A stretch of DNA of 63,288 bases, filler included. It is 5 parts of 5 records of this genome, joined end to end, with 100 filler letters (N's around TTAATTAATTAA, not from the genome) between each part and the next. Parts side by side here need not be neighbours in the genome. Positions count along the whole stretch, not along the records: positions 21,991 to 29,451 come from SRR31156797_4252; 4 more parts are not named here. One strand, 5' to 3'. Made by a program: the position numbers and the translations under genes. Positions within the stretch are counted from its first letter, which is position 1. Every line of letters begins with the position of its first letter. The notes under the pieces are model-generated. The model was not told the DNA's origin. It worked only from the letters and a program-made list of their open reading frames with translations, and searched no databases. Positions 2,558-47,286 of this stretch are shown in pieces.

Positions 2558-4906
2558 TTATTCGTACCTTAACGCCTTCACCGGATTCTGTATAGCCGCT
2601 TTATATGCCAGGAATCCGCTTGAGACAATAATAATCAGAATAGATCCAATTGCAACGAATAAAATATCCCAAACAGTAGCCTGGTATTTATAGGCACCGG
2701 GTGTTGATCTTTGTAGTATTGGGAAAACCGGCACAACATTTATAATCGCAATTAAAATAAGTACGATTAACTTTTTGATGGGCAATATAAACATTTGAGT
2801 TGTTTTTGCACCATGCACTTTCCGAATGCCTATTTCTTTTATCTTTTGTTGTGTGGTGAAAACAACCAATCCAAATATTCCTACAAGGGCAATTATAATT
2901 GCTAAAACAGTAAAAAATCCGGATGTATTTCTAACGTTGGTCCATATATCAAGTTCTTTTCTATCTCTGTCTTCATCAAATTCATAAATATTGAAAATCG
3001 AGTTTGGGAAAAATCCGGCAAGCTTATTTTTTACTTCTTTTTTTGCCTGATAGATTTTTTCGGAATTCACTAAGAAGGTAAAACAAGTTGATTGATCCAG
3101 GTTACCGTCATGCAATAATAAAAAGTACGGCTCTATTAAATGATGCAAATCATTCTGATTGAAATCTTTCATAACGCCAATTACCTCATATCTTTTACCT
3201 CCATCTTCAATCCACTTACCAATAGCATTTTTCCATCCAAATTTTTTAACCGCTATTTCATTAACAATGCATTTGTTTACATCAGTTGAGTATTCTTGAG
3301 AAAAGTTACGCCCCTCAAGAAGAGTAAAATTATAGGTGTTTATAAAATCGTAACAGGCTTTGTTATAATGAACACTGGTTAGTTCATCTTTTGGACCTCC
3401 TTCGTAAAAAATATCTGTTCCCCAATTGTGATGTAACGGTGTATTACCCGATAAACTTAAGTTTTTTATATCCGGATTGCTAAGGATTTCGTTACGCAAA
3501 ACATTGTAAGAAACGTGGCTGTTATTAGATGGTATCCGGGTGTGTAATAGATATTCTTTATTAAAACCTACATCTTTATTTTCCAGGAAATTGACTTGTT
3601 TGTAGATCCAAATACTTGATCCGAATAAAATGGTTGAAAGTATAAATTGAACATATACCATAACCATCATGCCCGAAGATTTTCTTTTTATACCGGAAAA
3701 ATTGGTTTGTCCTTTTAGCATTTTTATCGGATTGTATCCCGAAGCAACATAGGCGGGGTATATTCCGGCTAAAAAGCCGGCAATAATTATAATTCCAAGC
3801 ATAAAAAAAATCAGTCCCGCGTCATTAAAAACCGACAAGGTAATTTCCCGCTTTACCACAGTCCTGAAAAACGGCATACAAACAAATGTTAGTAAAAGAG
3901 CTATAAAAAAAGCGAATACTGATATAATTATCGATTCGGATAAAAATTGCCAACGAATTTTTCCTCTGCTGCTTCCGTTTGTTTTTCTAATAGCAATTTC
4001 TTTTGAACGTTTGGTTGACATAGAAGTGGAAAGGTTCATAAAATTTACTTTGGCCAAAAGTAAAATCAGAATGCCCATTAAAGAATAGAAAAACACTCCA
4101 CTTTTTGCATCTCTTGATTCGTCGGGATCAAGATGAAGCTTTTGCAGGGGATGGAGATACAGATAAGATTTATTTAAAGAGAGATGATCTTCGTAGATAT
4201 TTCTAATTTGATGATCAACAAAAGAAACTGATGAACCGGGTTTTAGCAACACATAGGTCATATAGGAGGCACTGCTCCATTCATTGAAGTGTTTACTACT
4301 TGCCTCTTTTATGGAACGAATATAACCAGCCCGAATATGGGAATTTGCCGGAATATCTTCCATTATTCCTGTAACCAATAATTCGTTTTTTTCTTTATCA
4401 TAAATTATCTCACCAACAGGGTTTTGATCTGGAAAGTATTTTTGGGCCATTGTTTGCGATAAAACAATAGCATTGGGCTGGTCTAGAACATTTTCCTTAT
4501 TACCTTGAATTAATTTGAAAGAAAATATGTCAAATATATCACTGGGTGCAGATGCTCCAAATTGCTCAACAAATGTTAATTCCGGTGTCGATGAAAAAAT
4601 CTTGTTCTTTTCTGTATCTATTGAAATCGCTTCTTCTACTTCCGGGATATTGTTTTTTAAATGGTTAGCAACAGGAAAAGATGTTAGGGTATTAACATCC
4701 AGTCTATCTCCTTTTTTATAGCCTTGTACCCTGTAAATCCTGTCGAAATTCGTATTGAAAGTATCCCAGCTTTTTTCGTATTGTGTATATTTTGCAATAA
4801 GAATAAACGCTGTAATACCTAAGGATAACCCAACAATCTGGATAGAAGAAAGCAATCTGTTTCTTTTAATATTTCGAATTGCTATGTTTATAAAATGTTT
4901 AATCAT
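2558..4906 (-). CDS. FtsX/MacB-like ABC transporter permease
   Basis: 782 aa; two KEI(A/G)IRKxxG motifs; C-terminus NPVKALRYE. Confidence 0.92.
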   Translation of the reverse strand: MIKHFINIAIRNIKRNRLLSSIQIVGLSLGITAFILIAKYTQYEKSWDTFNTNFDRIYRVQGYKKGDRLDVNTLTSFPVANHLKNNIPEVEEAISIDTEKNKIFSSTPELTFVEQFGASAPSDIFDIFSFKLIQGNKENVLDQPNAIVLSQTMAQKYFPDQNPVGEIIYDKEKNELLVTGIMEDIPANSHIRAGYIRSIKEASSKHFNEWSSASYMTYVLLKPGSSVSFVDHQIRNIYEDHLSLNKSYLYLHPLQKLHLDPDESRDAKSGVFFYSLMGILILLLAKVNFMNLSTSMSTKRSKEIAIRKTNGSSRGKIRWQFLSESIIISVFAFFIALLLTFVCMPFFRTVVKREITLSVFNDAGLIFFMLGIIIIAGFLAGIYPAYVASGYNPIKMLKGQTNFSGIKRKSSGMMVMVYVQFILSTILFGSSIWIYKQVNFLENKDVGFNKEYLLHTRIPSNNSHVSYNVLRNEILSNPDIKNLSLSGNTPLHHNWGTDIFYEGGPKDELTSVHYNKACYDFINTYNFTLLEGRNFSQEYSTDVNKCIVNEIAVKKFGWKNAIGKWIEDGGKRYEVIGVMKDFNQNDLHHLIEPYFLLLHDGNLDQSTCFTFLVNSEKIYQAKKEVKNKLAGFFPNSIFNIYEFDEDRDRKELDIWTNVRNTSGFFTVLAIIIALVGIFGLVVFTTQQKIKEIGIRKVHGAKTTQMFILPIKKLIVLILIAIINVVPVFPILQRSTPGAYKYQATVWDILFVAIGSILIIIVSSGFLAYKAAIQNPVKALRYE

Positions 4907-7554: not shown

Positions 7555-7654
7555 NNNNNNNNNNNNNNNNNNNNNNNNNNNNNNNNNNNNNNNNNNNNTT
7601 AATTAATTAANNNNNNNNNNNNNNNNNNNNNNNNNNNNNNNNNNNNNNNNNNNN
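7555..7654. other. Artificial contig spacer
   Basis: N-run with TTAATTAATTAA (stops in six frames). Confidence 0.99.
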
Positions 7655-21890: not shown

Positions 21891-21990
21891 NNNNNNNNNN
21901 NNNNNNNNNNNNNNNNNNNNNNNNNNNNNNNNNNTTAATTAATTAANNNNNNNNNNNNNNNNNNNNNNNNNNNNNNNNNNNNNNNNNNNN
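21891..21990. other. Artificial contig spacer
   Basis: N-run with TTAATTAATTAA. Confidence 0.99.
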
Positions 21991-24678: not shown

Positions 24679-25111
24679 TTGGTTGAAATATTAACGGTTA
24701 CAATATACAAACATTTGCGGTTCCTGACAAACCCGGAAAATCCATAAAAGACGACTTTTCTTGCCATGTCATTCAGGATGTGTTAATGCTAAACTGATGA
24801 TTTAGTGAATGATGCCGGCTTAACCAATCACCGCATTAAACAATTATCCGCAAGACGATCAGGACGTGATTTTGTTACATCCCGAATACCCTGCAATAAA
24901 CAAATCCTTGCAGTGTTGATATTCAAACCATCTCCGGTTTTATGGCGGCTCCTGGAAATATTTTATTTTAGCAGGTGAATTATCAAAACCTGTGAACATG
25001 AAAAATTTTACCATAATCCGTGTGAACCTTAAGCCCCCTGTTTCGGGTTGTCATTTCAACTGAGCAGAAAGCGGGTTTTGGATGTGATTTTGATAAAAAT
25101 ACACAAACCTG

Positions 25112-25174
25112 AACATATCTGCAGTATGATGTTGGATATGTTTGGAAAAGTGGAATATATTATGAGTTAGTAGC
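25112..25174 (+). mobile_element. attI-like primary recombination site of cassette array
   Basis: Core GTTAGTAGC (25166-25174) is the reverse complement of GCTACTAAC at the end of the first gene; no attC-type left arm upstream; 8-bp inverted repeat AACATATC/GATATGTT at 25112-25142. Confidence 0.6.
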
Positions 25175-25202
25175 AACTTTTAAAAAGACAAAAATTTACA
25201 AA

Positions 25203-26588
25203 TTGAAAAGACATTTAATCATACTAAGTTTTCTTCTAATTGCAATTTCTTCATTTTCTGATTATCGATTAACTCGGGGACCCAACATTGGAGAGGTATA
25301 TTATATTGGACCAACTTACAGTGGATTGGGCATTTACCACTCGACTGATTTTGGGAATACTGCAGTTTGTGTTGATAGTACAACTAATGCAACAGGAGTT
25401 GTTGCAGACTTATCAGAAGGAGTGCTTTATTACAGAAACATGGGAGAGGCATTATATATTTCTTATAATCACGGTCAACAAGGAACATGGCAACTTCAAA
25501 ATGGTGGGATTTACCCTGGATTCGCAAGCGGCAGAATAGAAGGAGAAATTTACAACATTATCGTTTCTCATAGTGATAATTATGGCGAAACTTTTAATCC
25601 ACATAGTTACAATGGCTTTTTTGGCAACTACTTTGAAAGCGAAATAGACAACCAACCAGATATTGGATACCTGCTTACCTACAAATCAAGTGTTGCAGAT
25701 TCTGTATACTTATTGAAATCAATTGACAATTATGAAAATTTAGAATTAAATCGGGTTTTTAACTTCCATTGGAACGATGCAATTACTCTGACCAGAGGAA
25801 CAAATAGTGGAGAGTTATATTTATTGAATAGCACCAATCGTGAACTATGGTTTACTAATGACTTTTCAGAAAGCTGGATTAAAGTGGACAACATTAATTT
25901 TGGTAGCAGCCCTTATGGAGCTACAATAGTCGGAGGAAGACAAAATGGAGAAGTCTATATTAAATATGACTTTGTTAATTTAATGTGGCAAAATGCCCAT
26001 ACTTACATTTTCCACTCAACTGACTATGGGAAAACCTTTGAAGTTTTCCATCCTTTTGGAAAAGGAAATGAACCTGTTTTAGCAAATTTCTCTACAACAG
26101 AAAATGAGGTTTTATTGACAACCCCTGTTGCATTTTCAAACTTTTCAATAGGCAATATTTTGGAATATCAATGGGACTTTGAAAACGATGGAGTAATTGA
26201 CTCTTATGATGAATTTCCAACTCACACTTATCAAGATACGGGTTATTATTCTGTGAAACTTTCAGTGGTAGGAGCAGACAGCACAAATACCTTCATTAAA
26301 GAAAATTACATTCATGTCATTGACACCATAACAAGTAGTCCTGACTTAAATTATCAGGCAGTTAGTGTCTCGCCAAATCCTTTCAATAAAAGAATTTCAA
26401 TTGAATTAAGACAAGATTTTGAAATGATTGAAATTCTTGACTTAAATGGAAAAAGTCATTTTTCAAAAAAAATATACCCGGAAAACAAGATTGAAATCCT
26501 TGACTTGAAACAATTGAAGAAGGGAATATTCATCTTGAAAATTAGGACTAAAGGAAAAGACATTACGAAGAAAATAATAAAGAATTAA
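25203..26588 (+). CDS. Cassette 1: secreted protein with BNR-like motifs, PKD domain and T9SS type-A C-terminal domain
   Basis: Signal peptide; STDFG/STDYG; YQWDFENDG..PTHTYQDTGYYSVKL; SPNPF..KGIFILKI..TKKIIKN; TTG start. Confidence 0.85.
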   Translation: MKRHLIILSFLLIAISSFSDYRLTRGPNIGEVYYIGPTYSGLGIYHSTDFGNTAVCVDSTTNATGVVADLSEGVLYYRNMGEALYISYNHGQQGTWQLQNGGIYPGFASGRIEGEIYNIIVSHSDNYGETFNPHSYNGFFGNYFESEIDNQPDIGYLLTYKSSVADSVYLLKSIDNYENLELNRVFNFHWNDAITLTRGTNSGELYLLNSTNRELWFTNDFSESWIKVDNINFGSSPYGATIVGGRQNGEVYIKYDFVNLMWQNAHTYIFHSTDYGKTFEVFHPFGKGNEPVLANFSTTENEVLLTTPVAFSNFSIGNILEYQWDFENDGVIDSYDEFPTHTYQDTGYYSVKLSVVGADSTNTFIKENYIHVIDTITSSPDLNYQAVSVSPNPFNKRISIELRQDFEMIEILDLNGKSHFSKKIYPENKIEILDLKQLKKGIFILKIRTKGKDITKKIIKN

Positions 26589-26597
26589 GAAAAAGCA

Positions 26598-26736
26598 GCT
26601 ACTAACAGCCCATGATAGCCCATAGCCGGCTTACGGATCATCAAGAAAAAGAATTGTAAATTTGAGCATATGTAACATCAACGAACATCAGAGTAAAGAA
26701 ACGGCTACGGGCCATATGGGCAAAACGTTGGCAACC
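26598..26736 (+). mobile_element. attC-like site 1
   Basis: GCTACTAAC-A-GCCCATgATAGCCCATAGCCG..CGGCTACGGGCCATATGGGC-AAAAC-GTTGGCAACC imperfect palindrome. Confidence 0.85.
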
Positions 26737-26755
26737 ATATAAGCATGTATGTAAA

Positions 26756-27541
26756 ATGAAAAATATCATACTATTAATATTAGCAACACTTCTTTCGAAT
26801 CTAAACATCTTCGGACAAACTCGAGTTATTTCTGGGAGAGTGATAACTGAGTATTTAGAACCATTACCTATGTTAGACATTCAAAATTCTGATGCAAAAA
26901 TCCTAGGTAAAACAGATATGGATGGGAGGTTTAAATTTAGCATTCCTCAAGAAACGGACAGTTTGCTGTTTCGCTATATCGGCTTGGAGCGGACTGATAT
27001 AAAATTAAAGCACGATTGCGACACAATAGAAGTTATCATGTTTTATAGTGGATCCTCTCATTGGTCCTTTAATAAAATAGATAGAATTCGCAAGAAAAGA
27101 TTTGATGAATTACCCAACATACATACTATTGCAGTAAAAGAAGGGCTATTTACGACTAATTCTAATTGCTATGAAAGAGAATTTAAACCTGATAAACCAG
27201 AACTGAAAGTGATTAGTAAGTATTTAAAAGAATTAAGGAAAGCTAACAAAAATGATTTTAAAGAATTAAAAATCGGTGACATTGTAAAAATACCATTTGG
27301 AGTAAACAGCTCGGAAAAAAGTATTAGTAGTACTTATTCACTTTGCGAGAATTGTACTGAGGAAGATTATGATTACGTAATTACTGGAAAGATTATTAAT
27401 AAATACAGAAGAAATTTTACTCTTAAAATTGAGATTACAGAAATGCAACAATATGACTCCTTAGAATATAGAGGGAAGACTTTAAAAATCGGCAATGATT
27501 TTAAATATGAGATGAGAATTTTTAAAGTGATAATAAATTAA
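26756..27541 (+). CDS. Cassette 2: exported hypothetical protein with carboxypeptidase-regulatory-like N-terminal domain
   Basis: Signal peptide; ISGRVI..EPLP..TDMDGRF..FRYIG. Confidence 0.75.
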   Translation: MKNIILLILATLLSNLNIFGQTRVISGRVITEYLEPLPMLDIQNSDAKILGKTDMDGRFKFSIPQETDSLLFRYIGLERTDIKLKHDCDTIEVIMFYSGSSHWSFNKIDRIRKKRFDELPNIHTIAVKEGLFTTNSNCYEREFKPDKPELKVISKYLKELRKANKNDFKELKIGDIVKIPFGVNSSEKSISSTYSLCENCTEEDYDYVITGKIINKYRRNFTLKIEITEMQQYDSLEYRGKTLKIGNDFKYEMRIFKVIIN

Positions 27542-27544
27542 AAC

Positions 27545-27670
27545 GGTTGCCAACAAAAGCTAAACACCATAAGGGTTTTGGCGCATTAGAAATGAATAAG
27601 AATACGTAAAAAAAATAAAACAAAATAGGGAAAAGCTCCTTACAGTGCTTAGCCCCGACCGTTGTGGGTA
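27545..27670 (+). mobile_element. attC-like site 2
   Basis: GGTTGCCAAC-AAAA-GCTAAACACCATAAGG..CCTTACAGTGCTTAGC-CCCGACC-GTTGTGGGTA. Confidence 0.85.
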
Positions 27671-27706
27671 ATGCAACCAAAGACATAGACGTAAGATGAA
27701 TTAAAT

Positions 27707-28363
27707 ATGAAATACACAGAAGACATAGTAAAAAAAGCAGCGAAGGATGCATATTTGAATGGTGATGTAAAATTTGAGATTTTAACTGAAAATTGTGCGT
27801 TGATTGTGATTGACATGCAAGATGAATTCGTAAAGCCAGAGTGGACATCCTCTTGGATTCCTGAAGCGACAAAACAAGTAACAAAAATAAAAATCCTAAT
27901 AGATTTCTGTAGACAAAAAAAAATCCCAGTAATTTATACAGCATTCAAGGATACTCATTTGTACAAAGACAGACCAAAAACAGGAGATTTGATGCCGAAT
28001 AGATATCCTGAATTAGGAGAAGACTCAACTTGGTTTAAGCAAGGGAAGATATGGCATGAATTAGAACCTAATGAACATGATATTGTGATTTACAAGCCAT
28101 CTTATGGTGCTTTCTATGATACTCCATTAGAGACAATTCTAAAAAACTTAGAAAAGGATACGATTATAATTTGCGGTACACTGACGAATTATTGCTGTGG
28201 AACAACTGCGAGACAGGGATATGAGCGAGGTTTTAAAGTACTTTTTGGGAGTGATGTGACTTCAACCGATGATCCAGAGATGCAAGAACCTGAATTAAAA
28301 GTATTAAGAAAAGGATTTGCAAAGGTTATGACTTTAAACGACATACAAAATCACATAGGATAA
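27707..28363 (+). CDS. Cassette 3: isochorismatase-family cysteine hydrolase
   Basis: ALIVIDMQDEF, KPSYGAFYDT, GTLTNYCCGTTARQG (D-K-C triad). Confidence 0.92.
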   Translation: MKYTEDIVKKAAKDAYLNGDVKFEILTENCALIVIDMQDEFVKPEWTSSWIPEATKQVTKIKILIDFCRQKKIPVIYTAFKDTHLYKDRPKTGDLMPNRYPELGEDSTWFKQGKIWHELEPNEHDIVIYKPSYGAFYDTPLETILKNLEKDTIIICGTLTNYCCGTTARQGYERGFKVLFGSDVTSTDDPEMQEPELKVLRKGFAKVMTLNDIQNHIG

Positions 28364-28369
28364 TGCACA

Positions 28370-28506
28370 TACCCACAACAGCCAATATAGAAAATAGCTG
28401 GGCAGTAGGTTTTCGAACTTCGGTAGCCCGCATCAGGCTTTTATCTCGGTAGATAGGAACGTAGCCCGTATTCCGCTAATTTCCATATTGGCAACACGTT
28501 AGCTGC
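28370..28506 (+). mobile_element. attC-like site 3
   Basis: TACCCACAAC-A-GCCAATATAGAAAATAGC..GCTAATTTCCATATTGGC-AACAC-GTTAGCTGC. Confidence 0.85.
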
Positions 28507-28514
28507 AAGGCAAA

Positions 28515-29426
28515 ATGACAGACATGAGAGATATTTACTCAAAAAGAAATAAAAGTGTTCCTGATAAACTTGTCTATAACCAAATTGACGAGAAACTACG
28601 TGTTCAAATTATCAGGACATGGTGGAAGTTTTTTAATCAGTATGATGAAGAAACATCTGAAAAACTATGGTTCAAAATCAATAGTATAATCTGTGACGAA
28701 CACGGAAAACATACTCTCCTTGCAGATGACCTAAGAAGATGGAAGGAGAGTTACAGGTGCCAATATTACTTTGAGAACTTGGAATCTTTAGACGAATCTT
28801 TTGATGTCATTGAAATTGTATTCAGAGCTATATCTAAAATTCCCGAAGTCATTCATCTAAGAATATCTCCAAGACCAGATGAAGTAATAGCTGAGCTAAA
28901 CGAGAGATTTCGAGAAAACGACTTTGGTTATGAATTTACTAAAGGCATGATAGTTAGGGTGGACAATAAACTGCTTCATAAGGACATAGTAAATCAAGTA
29001 ATCCAATTAACTAATGACAGTTTTTTTTCAAATGCAAATGAAGAGTTTCTGTCTGCTTTGAATCATTTGAGACATGGGCGTAATAAAGAAGCCTTAAACG
29101 ATAGCCTAAAGTCATTTGAATCCACTATGAAAATAATAATCCACGACATGGGTTGGGATTATAATGAAAATGACACCGCAAGTAAATTGATTCAAAAATG
29201 CCTTGACAATGAACTGATTCCGAAATCCCTTCAAAGTCAATTTTCTGCACTAAGAACAACTCTTGAAGCAGGTATACCGACCATTCGAAATAAGAATAGC
29301 GGACATGGACAAGGTCCTAAGAAAATCGTAGTTCCTGACAGCTTAGCGACCTATTCAATTTACATGACCGGGACGTGCATTAATTATCTAATCGAATTGT
29401 ACAAAGAAAAAAAGCCCAGCAGCTAA
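28515..29426 (+). CDS. Cassette 4: STM4504/CBY_0614-like protein with abortive-infection-like C-terminal domain
   Basis: IYSKRN..LRVQII N-terminus; ELNERFRE..GYEF; KSFESTMK; PTIRNKNSGHGQG (RxxxxxH); stop codon lies within inverse core. Confidence 0.7.
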   Translation: MTDMRDIYSKRNKSVPDKLVYNQIDEKLRVQIIRTWWKFFNQYDEETSEKLWFKINSIICDEHGKHTLLADDLRRWKESYRCQYYFENLESLDESFDVIEIVFRAISKIPEVIHLRISPRPDEVIAELNERFRENDFGYEFTKGMIVRVDNKLLHKDIVNQVIQLTNDSFFSNANEEFLSALNHLRHGRNKEALNDSLKSFESTMKIIIHDMGWDYNENDTASKLIQKCLDNELIPKSLQSQFSALRTTLEAGIPTIRNKNSGHGQGPKKIVVPDSLATYSIYMTGTCINYLIELYKEKKPSS

Positions 29427-29451
29427 TCGAGTAGACGGCCCCGGCCATGAA
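29426..29451 (-). mobile_element. 3' end of putative group IIC intron inserted in attC-like site 4
   Basis: Reverse strand ..GGCCGGGGCCGTCTACTCGAT|TAGCTGC; replaces the hairpin arm expected after GCAGCTAA. Confidence 0.65.
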
Positions 29452-29551
29452 NNNNNNNNNNNNNNNNNNNNNNNNNNNNNNNNNNNNNNNNNNNNTTAAT
29501 TAATTAANNNNNNNNNNNNNNNNNNNNNNNNNNNNNNNNNNNNNNNNNNNN
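29452..29551. other. Artificial contig spacer
   Basis: N-run with TTAATTAATTAA. Confidence 0.99.
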
Positions 29552-36253: not shown

Positions 36254-36329
36254 GCCAATGTAGCTCAGTCGGCAGAGCAGCAGTTTCGTAAACTGCAGGT
36301 CAGGGGTTCAATTCCCCTCATTGGCTCCA
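36254..36329 (+). tRNA. tRNA-Thr(CGT)
   Basis: 76 nt cloverleaf; acceptor GCCAATG/CATTGGC; anticodon arm GCAGT-TTCGTAA-ACTGC; GGTTCAATT T-loop; CCA end. Confidence 0.95.
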
Positions 36330-47186: not shown

Positions 47187-47286
47187 NNNNNNNNNNNNNN
47201 NNNNNNNNNNNNNNNNNNNNNNNNNNNNNNTTAATTAATTAANNNNNNNNNNNNNNNNNNNNNNNNNNNNNNNNNNNNNNNNNNNN
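47187..47286. other. Artificial contig spacer
   Basis: N-run with TTAATTAATTAA. Confidence 0.99.

Follow-up and report, generated by a model that had tools for sequence, protein, structure and literature searches.

Hairpin cassette sites with an asymmetric spacer in a Bacteroidales gene array, and a long Xer/IntI-like recombinase as their likely enzyme

What are the long hairpins that stand between consecutive genes on a contig from a Bacteroidales bacterium, and which recombinase would act on them? The contig is part of a stretch of DNA of 63,288 nucleotides (the window, by which we mean the whole of the analysed stretch) made up of five contigs joined by four N44-TTAATTAATTAA-N44 linkers at 7555-7654, 21891-21990, 29452-29551 and 47187-47286. 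On the contig at 21991-29451 (7461 bp) three imperfect hairpins of 120-134 nt separate open reading frames (ORFs) of the same (+) strand, and a fourth hairpin begins at 29419. An earlier note, made from the letters alone, had taken the first three for attachment sites of the attC kind; their boxes, their fold and their chimeric junctions bear this out, and we regard the hairpins as very probably attC-type cassette sites. With good but lesser confidence, we place them in an integron-like array of at least four promoterless-looking cassettes, for which the likely enzyme is a long Xer/IntI-like recombinase found in related genomes. The sites are as follows (R2 is a covariance model described below):

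Site 1, 26600-26733, minus (bottom) strand: predicted attC-type site that folds, with the AAC-side box at 26600-26606 and the GTT-side box at 26727-26733
Site 2, 27548-27667, minus strand: predicted attC-type site, a divergent member of a family of ~138 nt; R2 match at 27545-27670
Site 3, 28373-28504, minus strand: predicted attC-type site that folds; R2 score 79 bits
Site 4 (start only), 29419-29451, minus strand: AAC-side box GCAGCTAAT overlapping a stop codon; ends at the N linker

In DNA folds the hairpins have stems of about 20 pairs and loops of about 70 nt. AAC and GTT triplets stand at the ends of all three complete sites; site 4 has AAT. On the top strand sites 1 and 3 read AAC-A-GCC...GGC-AAAAC or AACAC-GTT, confirming the 1x5 loop that had been noticed beside the AAC/GTT pair, and the single bulged base described in site 1 is G 26614 of the top strand, that is, a C on the bottom strand. 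Sequence and folds agree with the first count of the top-strand A/C mismatches that turn into bottom-strand G.T wobbles: site 1 has two, site 2 three and site 3 one, and site 3 additionally has one T/T mismatch. Site 2 fits the same design with three extra bottom-strand G.T pairs (GGG opposite TTT), its spacer then being 4x1. The predicted bias towards folding of the bottom strand holds at all three sites, modestly (0.3-3.5 kcal/mol): the DNA minimum free energies of bottom and top strands are -15.65 and -13.8 kcal/mol for site 1 (difference 1.85), -14.6 and -11.1 for site 2 (difference 3.5) and -19.4 and -19.1 for site 3 (difference 0.3). Against shuffles, the bottom-strand folds have weak z-scores of -1.5 to -2.1.

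The sites belong to a larger family. For a covariance model (R1), the bottom strands of just sites 1 and 3 were aligned and given their structure by hand; a MAFFT alignment of the three sites misaligned the 3' arms. Full-length R1 matches occur in 15 of 23 genomes of the family Lentimicrobiaceae, up to 34 of them in a single genome (G023), and the alignment of 49 matches (48 distinct) gave a second model, R2. Site 1 scores 134.9 bits with R2, a model built partly from it, while site 2, which was absent from the model building, scores 38.6 bits (E 1e-7, minus strand). The earlier impression that the primary sequence is poorly conserved does not hold: sites 1 and 3, and more weakly site 2, are members of a conserved family of ~138 nt.

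Across the 48 distinct sites AAC is conserved in 46, 44 and 42 by position and GTT in 44, 45 and 47. The bottom-strand spacer on the AAC arm has five (or four) nucleotides, beginning with G in 45 sites, and faces a single T in 47/48. After six pairs, the 3' arm of the bottom strand has one bulged base, opposite AAC, in 41/48 sites (G in 31, T in 7, A in 2, C in 1) and none in the other 7. The sites are thus a conserved structural variant with a 5x1 spacer. Covariation among homologues was found: 93.6% of the cells in the family alignment pair, 18 of 23 pairs show compensatory changes on both sides, and the covariation score of 0.387 compares with 0.132 in shuffles (0/500 reach 0.387) and with 0.05-0.11 when the partners are slid. 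Bottom-strand G.T cells number 87 against 15 A/C cells, and the consensus stem is stabler on the bottom strand in 39/48 sites, by a mean of 2.05 kcal/mol, which supports the view that the bottom strand carries the selected pairing. Two points weigh on the other side: the alignment behind the pair counts was fitted to the structure of the model and its sequences are related, and the minimum free energy of the whole site favours the bottom strand in just 29/48 (mean 0.70 kcal/mol, p 0.08).

How do these sites compare with known attC sites? Like the attC sites of sedentary chromosomal integrons, of which the ~130-nt repeats of Vibrio cholerae are an example, they are long, imperfect hairpins with AAC...GTT boxes at their ends, a long variable loop, a bulged base opposite the bottom-strand AAC, chimeric neighbouring boxes and a lineage-homogeneous sequence; unlike in those integrons, the arrays are short, several occur per genome and no IntI lies beside them. 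A bottom-strand excess of G.T pairs and a bulged base opposite AAC are given as ordinary attC properties in Nivina 2016 (PMC5027507), and these two features therefore make the sites attC-like without setting them apart as a new class. The numbers are 1.8 G.T pairs per site on the bottom strand versus 0.3 on the top here, and 1.24 versus 0.39 in that report (PMC5027507). The earlier interpretation is partly supported: the sites are att sites of the attC kind with selected pairing on the bottom strand, and of a structurally distinct att class the conserved asymmetric spacer remains. Further differences are that only one extrahelical base is seen per site, compared with the two or three given for classical attC sites (PMC5027507), and that the spacer is a 4-5-nt bulge opposite a single T, whereas the classical attC in locus L062 is unpaired similarly on both arms; the central spacer unpaired on two arms that counts as an attC criterion is absent, one arm having the single T in 47/48 sites. 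R2 does not match this classical attC, which lies next to a high-scoring IntI gene. It was brought out by a naive scan of IntI contigs for AAC...GTT hairpins that was otherwise too noisy. The overlap with Flavo-1 or another catalogued RNA that had been suggested is not seen: between 26300 and 28800 Rfam gives no match at gathering score and no Flavo-1 up to E 10, just five sub-threshold snoRNA or RNA-OUT matches (E 2-9).

If the hairpins are cassette sites, the DNA between them should fall into units bounded by GTT. The predicted head element and cassettes are:

attI-like element E, 25088..25168, plus strand: array head, ending in the predicted crossover triplet GTT at 25166-25168
Cassette 1, 25167..26727, plus strand: ORF 25203-26588 with a PKD domain and a type IX secretion system (T9SS) C-terminal sorting domain (Pfam); contains site 1
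Cassette 2, 26728..27661, plus strand: ORF 26756-27541; contains site 2
Cassette 3, 27662..28498, plus strand: ORF 27707-28363, isochorismatase-like (PF00857, 127.3 bits); contains site 3
Cassette 4, 28499..29451, plus strand: ORF 28515-29426, AbiJ-like (AbiJ_NTD4 and DUF7014, Pfam); ends at the contig end

The boundaries bear a clear signature. Three pairs of boxes are exact reverse complements: GTTAGTAGC at 25166 and GCTACTAAC in site 1 (9/9), GTTGGCAACC at 26727 and GGTTGCCAAC at 27545-27554 (10/10), and GTTGTGGGTA at 27661 and TACCCACAAC at 28370-28379 (10/10). GTTAGCTGC at 28498 is complementary to the AAC-side box of site 4 in 8/9 positions, the mismatch turning AAC into AAT. Circular one-hairpin cassettes inserted by crossover at GTT should leave just such chimeric junctions, in which the GTT-side box of one site and the AAC-side box of the following site are complementary over 9-10 nt. 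Among 24 neighbouring site pairs in relatives (two of them from the window), a mean of 4.25 of the 7 variable positions match, against 2.1 in 1382 unrelated pairings, and at least 5/7 match in 13/24 against 51/1382. The longest inter-site ORF is on the top strand in 22/24 intervals. Chance is excluded because of the complementarity of the neighbouring boxes (9/9, 10/10, 10/10, 8/9) together with the covariation in 48 distinct relatives.

The cassettes also occur apart from one another in contigs of public sequencing runs, which are evidence of presence and of joins, not of frequencies. Run X2, a salt-lake metagenome from another study, contains cassette 1 alone at ~99% identity from 25166 to 26729; the ends of the match are the two predicted GTT triplets, and the DNA on either side (before 25166 and after 26729) is unlike the window. 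The gene of cassette 4 recurs at ~95% in runs X4 (manure) and X5 (compost), from 28490 or 28496 to 29426, with unlike flanks. In X1, the probable source run, a second contig at one sixth the depth matches cassette 3 only at its two ends (27658-27676 and 28362-28390) and has other DNA between them. Those parts that X2, X4 and X5 leave uncovered carry no information.

At the head of the array, an nhmmer profile made from four copies locates element E at 25090-25169. Another 15 copies turned up, twelve of them on metagenome contigs and three in two family genomes; some are duplicate assemblies of one place. Conservation covers the ~80 nt before 25166, and in all copies the similarity stops at GTT, beyond which the DNA is unrelated. 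A family site lies downstream in the correct orientation in 6/12 metagenome loci (a seventh has one upstream only), and on one family contig (G022:C107) the box of the next hairpin site complements the junction of the element except for a one-base indel. Judged by its conservation up to GTT and the sites downstream, the element thus looks attI-like. Two other accounts of it were rejected: as a short attC hairpin, since its pairing is not conserved between copies, and as the shared leader of a gene, since the genes that follow it in the window and in G023 are unrelated (E 1.4). A search for an IntI remnant near the element gave one 29-bit match 1.1 kb away, inside other genes, which was set aside. 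We also observed that two copies in one genome (G022; L078 2191-2626 and L079 9230-9664) share 436 nt at 88% identity, ending at GTT, with different flanking genes and no recognised coding content in the longer shared part. In L089 a family site (403-540) lies ~850 nt upstream of the element (1395-1429) and points the same way, so another array may contain or precede the element.

Which recombinase might the element have come with? The flanks upstream of its copies differ (an oxidoreductase gene, a ThiF gene and, in the window, a CarboxypepD_reg gene), and most copies therefore stand without a recombinase. At locus L091, the element directly follows a gene for a 488-aa tyrosine recombinase that reads towards the junction and has its stop codon inside the element; L091 ends one base past GTT. 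Two further contigs of the same metagenome (L088 and L092) start 126 nt before GTT, continue through an identical element and then enter different cassettes. The stand-alone copies of the element retain, with indels, ~55 nt of the 3' end of the recombinase gene.

The same layout recurs in relatives, where genes for Xer/IntI-like tyrosine recombinases of 380-565 aa lie directly upstream of an attI-like site and are transcribed towards the cassettes. The proteins combine Phage_int_SAM_4 and Phage_integrase domains with an extra N-terminal region of ~100-280 aa that has no confident Pfam match. About 40-140 nt past the stop codon are conserved between genomes, the similarity ending at GTT; between G021 and G024 the 131 nt after the stop codon are identical and divergence begins immediately past GTT. 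Downstream of several such genes, the boxes of the next hairpin sites match the junction:

L051 (G022:C129), headed by the recombinase: boxes match 10/10, then 9/10
L124 (G016:C21), headed by the recombinase: boxes match 10/10 and 10/10
L112 (G021:C2), headed by the recombinase: box matches 9/10; the 68-nt site folds at -13.7 (bottom) versus -8.6 (top) kcal/mol
L129 (G149), headed by the recombinase: box matches 9/10
L131 (closed genome G328), headed by the recombinase: box matches 9/10 twice

In the search for a box with a hairpin that covered L051 and L112, control regions gave 0 matches. The closed genome, of 5.1 Mb, has three such platforms. As side observations, a lone in-frame stop (TAG or TAA) interrupts several copies of the long gene, which are otherwise full length and head arrays with matching boxes (G022:C129, L051 4139-5563; G328:C1 1626375-1627763 and 3715608-3716999), and small ORFs of ~60-76 aa adjoin family sites (L054 9711-9914, L055 6600-6827 and L055 8627-8800, all minus strand). 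The small ORFs are similar to the N-terminal 65-80 residues of the long recombinase, at 35-76% identity, and Pfam gives no match for them.

By its sequence, the recombinase is not an IntI. Its scores on the integron integrase model TIGR02249 (166.5 bits in L091, 202.1 in G001:C646, 232 in G002:C29) lie below the 265-bit cut-off, on which the control IntI of G020 scores 420.9-421.1 bits, and all five recombinases aligned with three IntIs have a gap of ~42 residues in place of the IntI-specific insertion. In public sources the relatives are named XerD, site-specific integrase or tyrosine-type recombinase; integron integrase is the name in 0 of the best 120 clusters. One homologue is in the named, presumably cultured Sunxiuqinia elliptica. 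The recombinase is present in 17/23 family genomes at E<=1e-30, a count that includes shorter relatives linked to IS91, and in 73/401 Bacteroidales genomes at E<=1e-60; canonical IntI above the cut-off is present in 1/23 and 7/401, respectively. We found no description of this recombinase with cassette arrays in searches of open-access papers and preprints. The earlier note was sound on the hairpins; it missed the boundary signature, the attI-like head and the non-IntI recombinase of the relatives, and since then the fourth site at 29419 has been added and the spacer of site 2 redefined as 4x1.

Together, the related genomes suggest that the window cassettes are handled by a recombinase unlike the classical integron integrase. 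That the sites are part of an integron-like system run by a non-IntI recombinase is the most likely reading, at somewhat better than even confidence. Each cassette begins with the TT of a GTT triplet and ends with the G of the following one, and because it carries its own site at its 3' end, the box after one site pairs with the box that starts the next. The site probably acts as a folded bottom strand, in which the AAC/GTT pair would be followed by the 4-5-nt bulge of the AAC arm, facing a single T, then by six pairs, the bulged base opposite AAC, ~14 pairs and the ~70-nt loop. A tyrosine recombinase, most likely the 380-565-aa Xer/IntI-like enzyme that lacks the IntI insertion, would cleave at AAC/GTT; strand exchange with a second such site would excise a cassette, and exchange with the attI-like head element would insert one.

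Several observations weigh against this assignment of the enzyme. The window contig has no recombinase (the best tblastn match to IntI has E 0.30), and a Pfam scan found no integrase among the 49 ORFs of the window. The genome with the most sites (G023, with 34) has no homologue of the recombinase at E<=1e-30. Of the 23 family genomes, 13 have both sites and recombinase, 2 only sites, 4 only the recombinase and 4 neither of them; this co-occurrence, in which the short IS91-linked relatives are counted, is not significant (one-sided Fisher p ~0.08, by hand). Loci L122, L123 and L125, each with >1.6 kb downstream of the gene, have no matching box with a hairpin, and the chains of boxes in L128 and L130 are weak. 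The IntI insertion has been called essential to integrons (PMC8138268), and our literature search found no precedent for an enzyme without it acting on folded strands.

The best-surviving alternative is that the window contig is part of an ordinary integron array without its integrase, with a canonical IntI elsewhere or lost from the assembly and the long recombinase a bystander or an enzyme of other function. Such an array is a cluster of attC sites lacking integron integrase (CALIN; Cury 2016, via PMC8618304), and the contig resembles one in having at least three attC-type sites and no integrase. CALINs are described as common, and intI as readily lost from fragmented genomes (PMC8618304, PMC9668308), and IntI substrates are reported to have the same AAC/GTT triplets, bulge opposite AAC and excess of G.T pairs (PMC5027507). 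A canonical IntI does exist in the family (G020, 420.9-421.1 bits, on a contig of 1236 bp) as well as in 7/401 genomes of the order, and, as a further point against a non-IntI enzyme, three IntI-bearing genomes (G048, G269 and G349) contain 12, 6 and 3 family sites, so that IntI may act in trans. However, only 1/15 site-bearing family genomes has an IntI above the cut-off, and an unfiltered scan of nine IntI loci gave no family site beside IntI (best 13.7 bits, E 0.18). Moreover, the attI-like element and the matching boxes of first cassettes follow the 3' end of the long recombinase, not of IntI, and the window array differs from a CALIN in retaining as its head the same element that abuts the recombinase gene in L091. 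We consider this alternative unlikely, though it deserves to be kept in view.

Far less probable is that the sites are handled by a short (~275-325 aa) Xer-like recombinase that travels with an IS91-family transposase. Such a gene abuts a family site in L026 (1057-2139), L050 (5938-8240), L110, L116, L117 and L118, and the junction GTTGAACTAA recurs in L026, L050, L057, L034 and at the end of L124. Yet in L050 the short gene is followed by an IS91-family transposase (400.7 bits), its strand relative to the site varies between loci, the recurring junction looks like that of an insertion sequence targeting the sites, and neither an attI-like head nor a matching cassette box is linked to it. Equally improbable is that the hairpins are intergenic repeats serving as terminators, RNA elements or hairpins of the repetitive extragenic palindrome or miniature inverted-repeat transposable element kind, a view that could draw on their position downstream of ORFs, on one 5-pair terminator-like match inside site 1 (minus strand, 26715-26701) and on a G.U bias that would also fit antisense RNA from the bottom strand, but against which stand the absence, at all three sites, of a coding-strand (+) hairpin of terminator type followed by a T run, the absence of a matching Rfam family, and the box swaps, run matches ending at GTT and varied cassettes behind one head element, which would be unexpected of terminators or passive repeats.

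Returning to the long recombinase, its arrays resemble a complete integron with IntI: there is a gene for a tyrosine recombinase, a single primary site whose conservation reaches to GTT, and a row of cassettes, each closed by a hairpin site. The differences are that the enzyme scores below the TIGR02249 cut-off, lacks the insertion and has an extra N-terminal region, and that the attI-like site comes within about 40-140 nt of the stop codon. The gene points towards the cassettes, as it reportedly does in the 'inverted integrase' integrons of Treponema. As in sedentary chromosomal integrons, the cassette genes lie on the same strand and are mostly unannotated or defence-like; the cassettes of the relatives are rich in such genes (AbiJ-like, AbiEii-type ATPases, Fic, Schlafen/AlbA_2 and EAD11-CHAT). 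A likeness also exists to the Xer-dependent modules of Acinetobacter plasmids, which are gene modules bounded by sites for a Xer-type tyrosine recombinase, the pdif sites. These are short double-stranded sites of ~28 bp, whereas here the sites are 120-138-nt hairpins with strand-specific wobbles, and in relatives a dedicated recombinase gene heads the array.

Whether Bacteroidales thus have a second, independently built integron, with a Xer-like recombinase that has an N-terminal region of its own but not the IntI insertion, a primary site just behind the stop codon of its gene and 5x1 hairpins recombined as folded bottom strands, is to our minds evenly balanced. If so, this kind would be about ten times commoner in Bacteroidales than canonical integrons, of which IntegronFinder 2.0 is reported to have found one complete example in complete genomes of Bacteroidetes (PMC9024848). 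The extra domain of IntI has been described as essential to integron function (PMC8138268), and the change from double-strand to single-strand recombination has been identified with its acquisition (PMC7790495); a second integron would mean that recombination of single-strand hairpin cassettes evolved, or is retained, without the helix thought to enable IntI, and as a natural second example it would make the needs of a tyrosine recombinase for folded single strands testable. Should the long recombinase run the system, integron-type gene capture would be far wider than IntI-based surveys show, and tools keyed to IntI would miss such arrays.

The remaining features of the contig are its gene order and its relatives. 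The gene order comprises an alpha/beta hydrolase gene and a gene for a CarboxypepD_reg-domain protein (both on the minus strand), 524 nt without a long ORF and then the four plus-strand ORFs, that of cassette 2 giving a weak CarboxypepD_reg-like match (29.5 bits against the Pfam cut-off of 32.2). The host of the array is a Bacteroidales bacterium; the flank gene has 79% identity to a gene of a Lentimicrobiaceae metagenome-assembled genome. In locus L001, which carries a relative of the flank gene, the upstream DNA is not alignable and the contig stops 420 nt from the gene.

Some minor observations concern the end of the array and the rest of the window. The first 20 nt of site 4 (TAATCGAGTAGACGGCCCCG, 29424-29443) recur right after the stop codon of a canonical IntI gene in G349:C86 (L071 ~4135-4180), a gene that has an in-frame TAA, and are followed there by a hairpin and GGGGTGCGCCTCTCA; the latter letters are also found in an X4 contig with a loose end at 29443. 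This arrangement resembles the 5' end of a group II intron inserted at a hairpin; an Rfam scan of the 1.5 kb after the G349 IntI found nothing. On another contig of the window, a tRNA gene at 36254-36326 (72.3 bits) is the sole Rfam match at gathering score in the window. Lastly, the last contig (47287-63288) has a G+C content of 43.8%, against 34-37% in the others, and carries genes of another kind (DsrE/TusD-like, HflK/C/X, MiaA and MutL); given these differences in composition and gene content, it may come from another organism.

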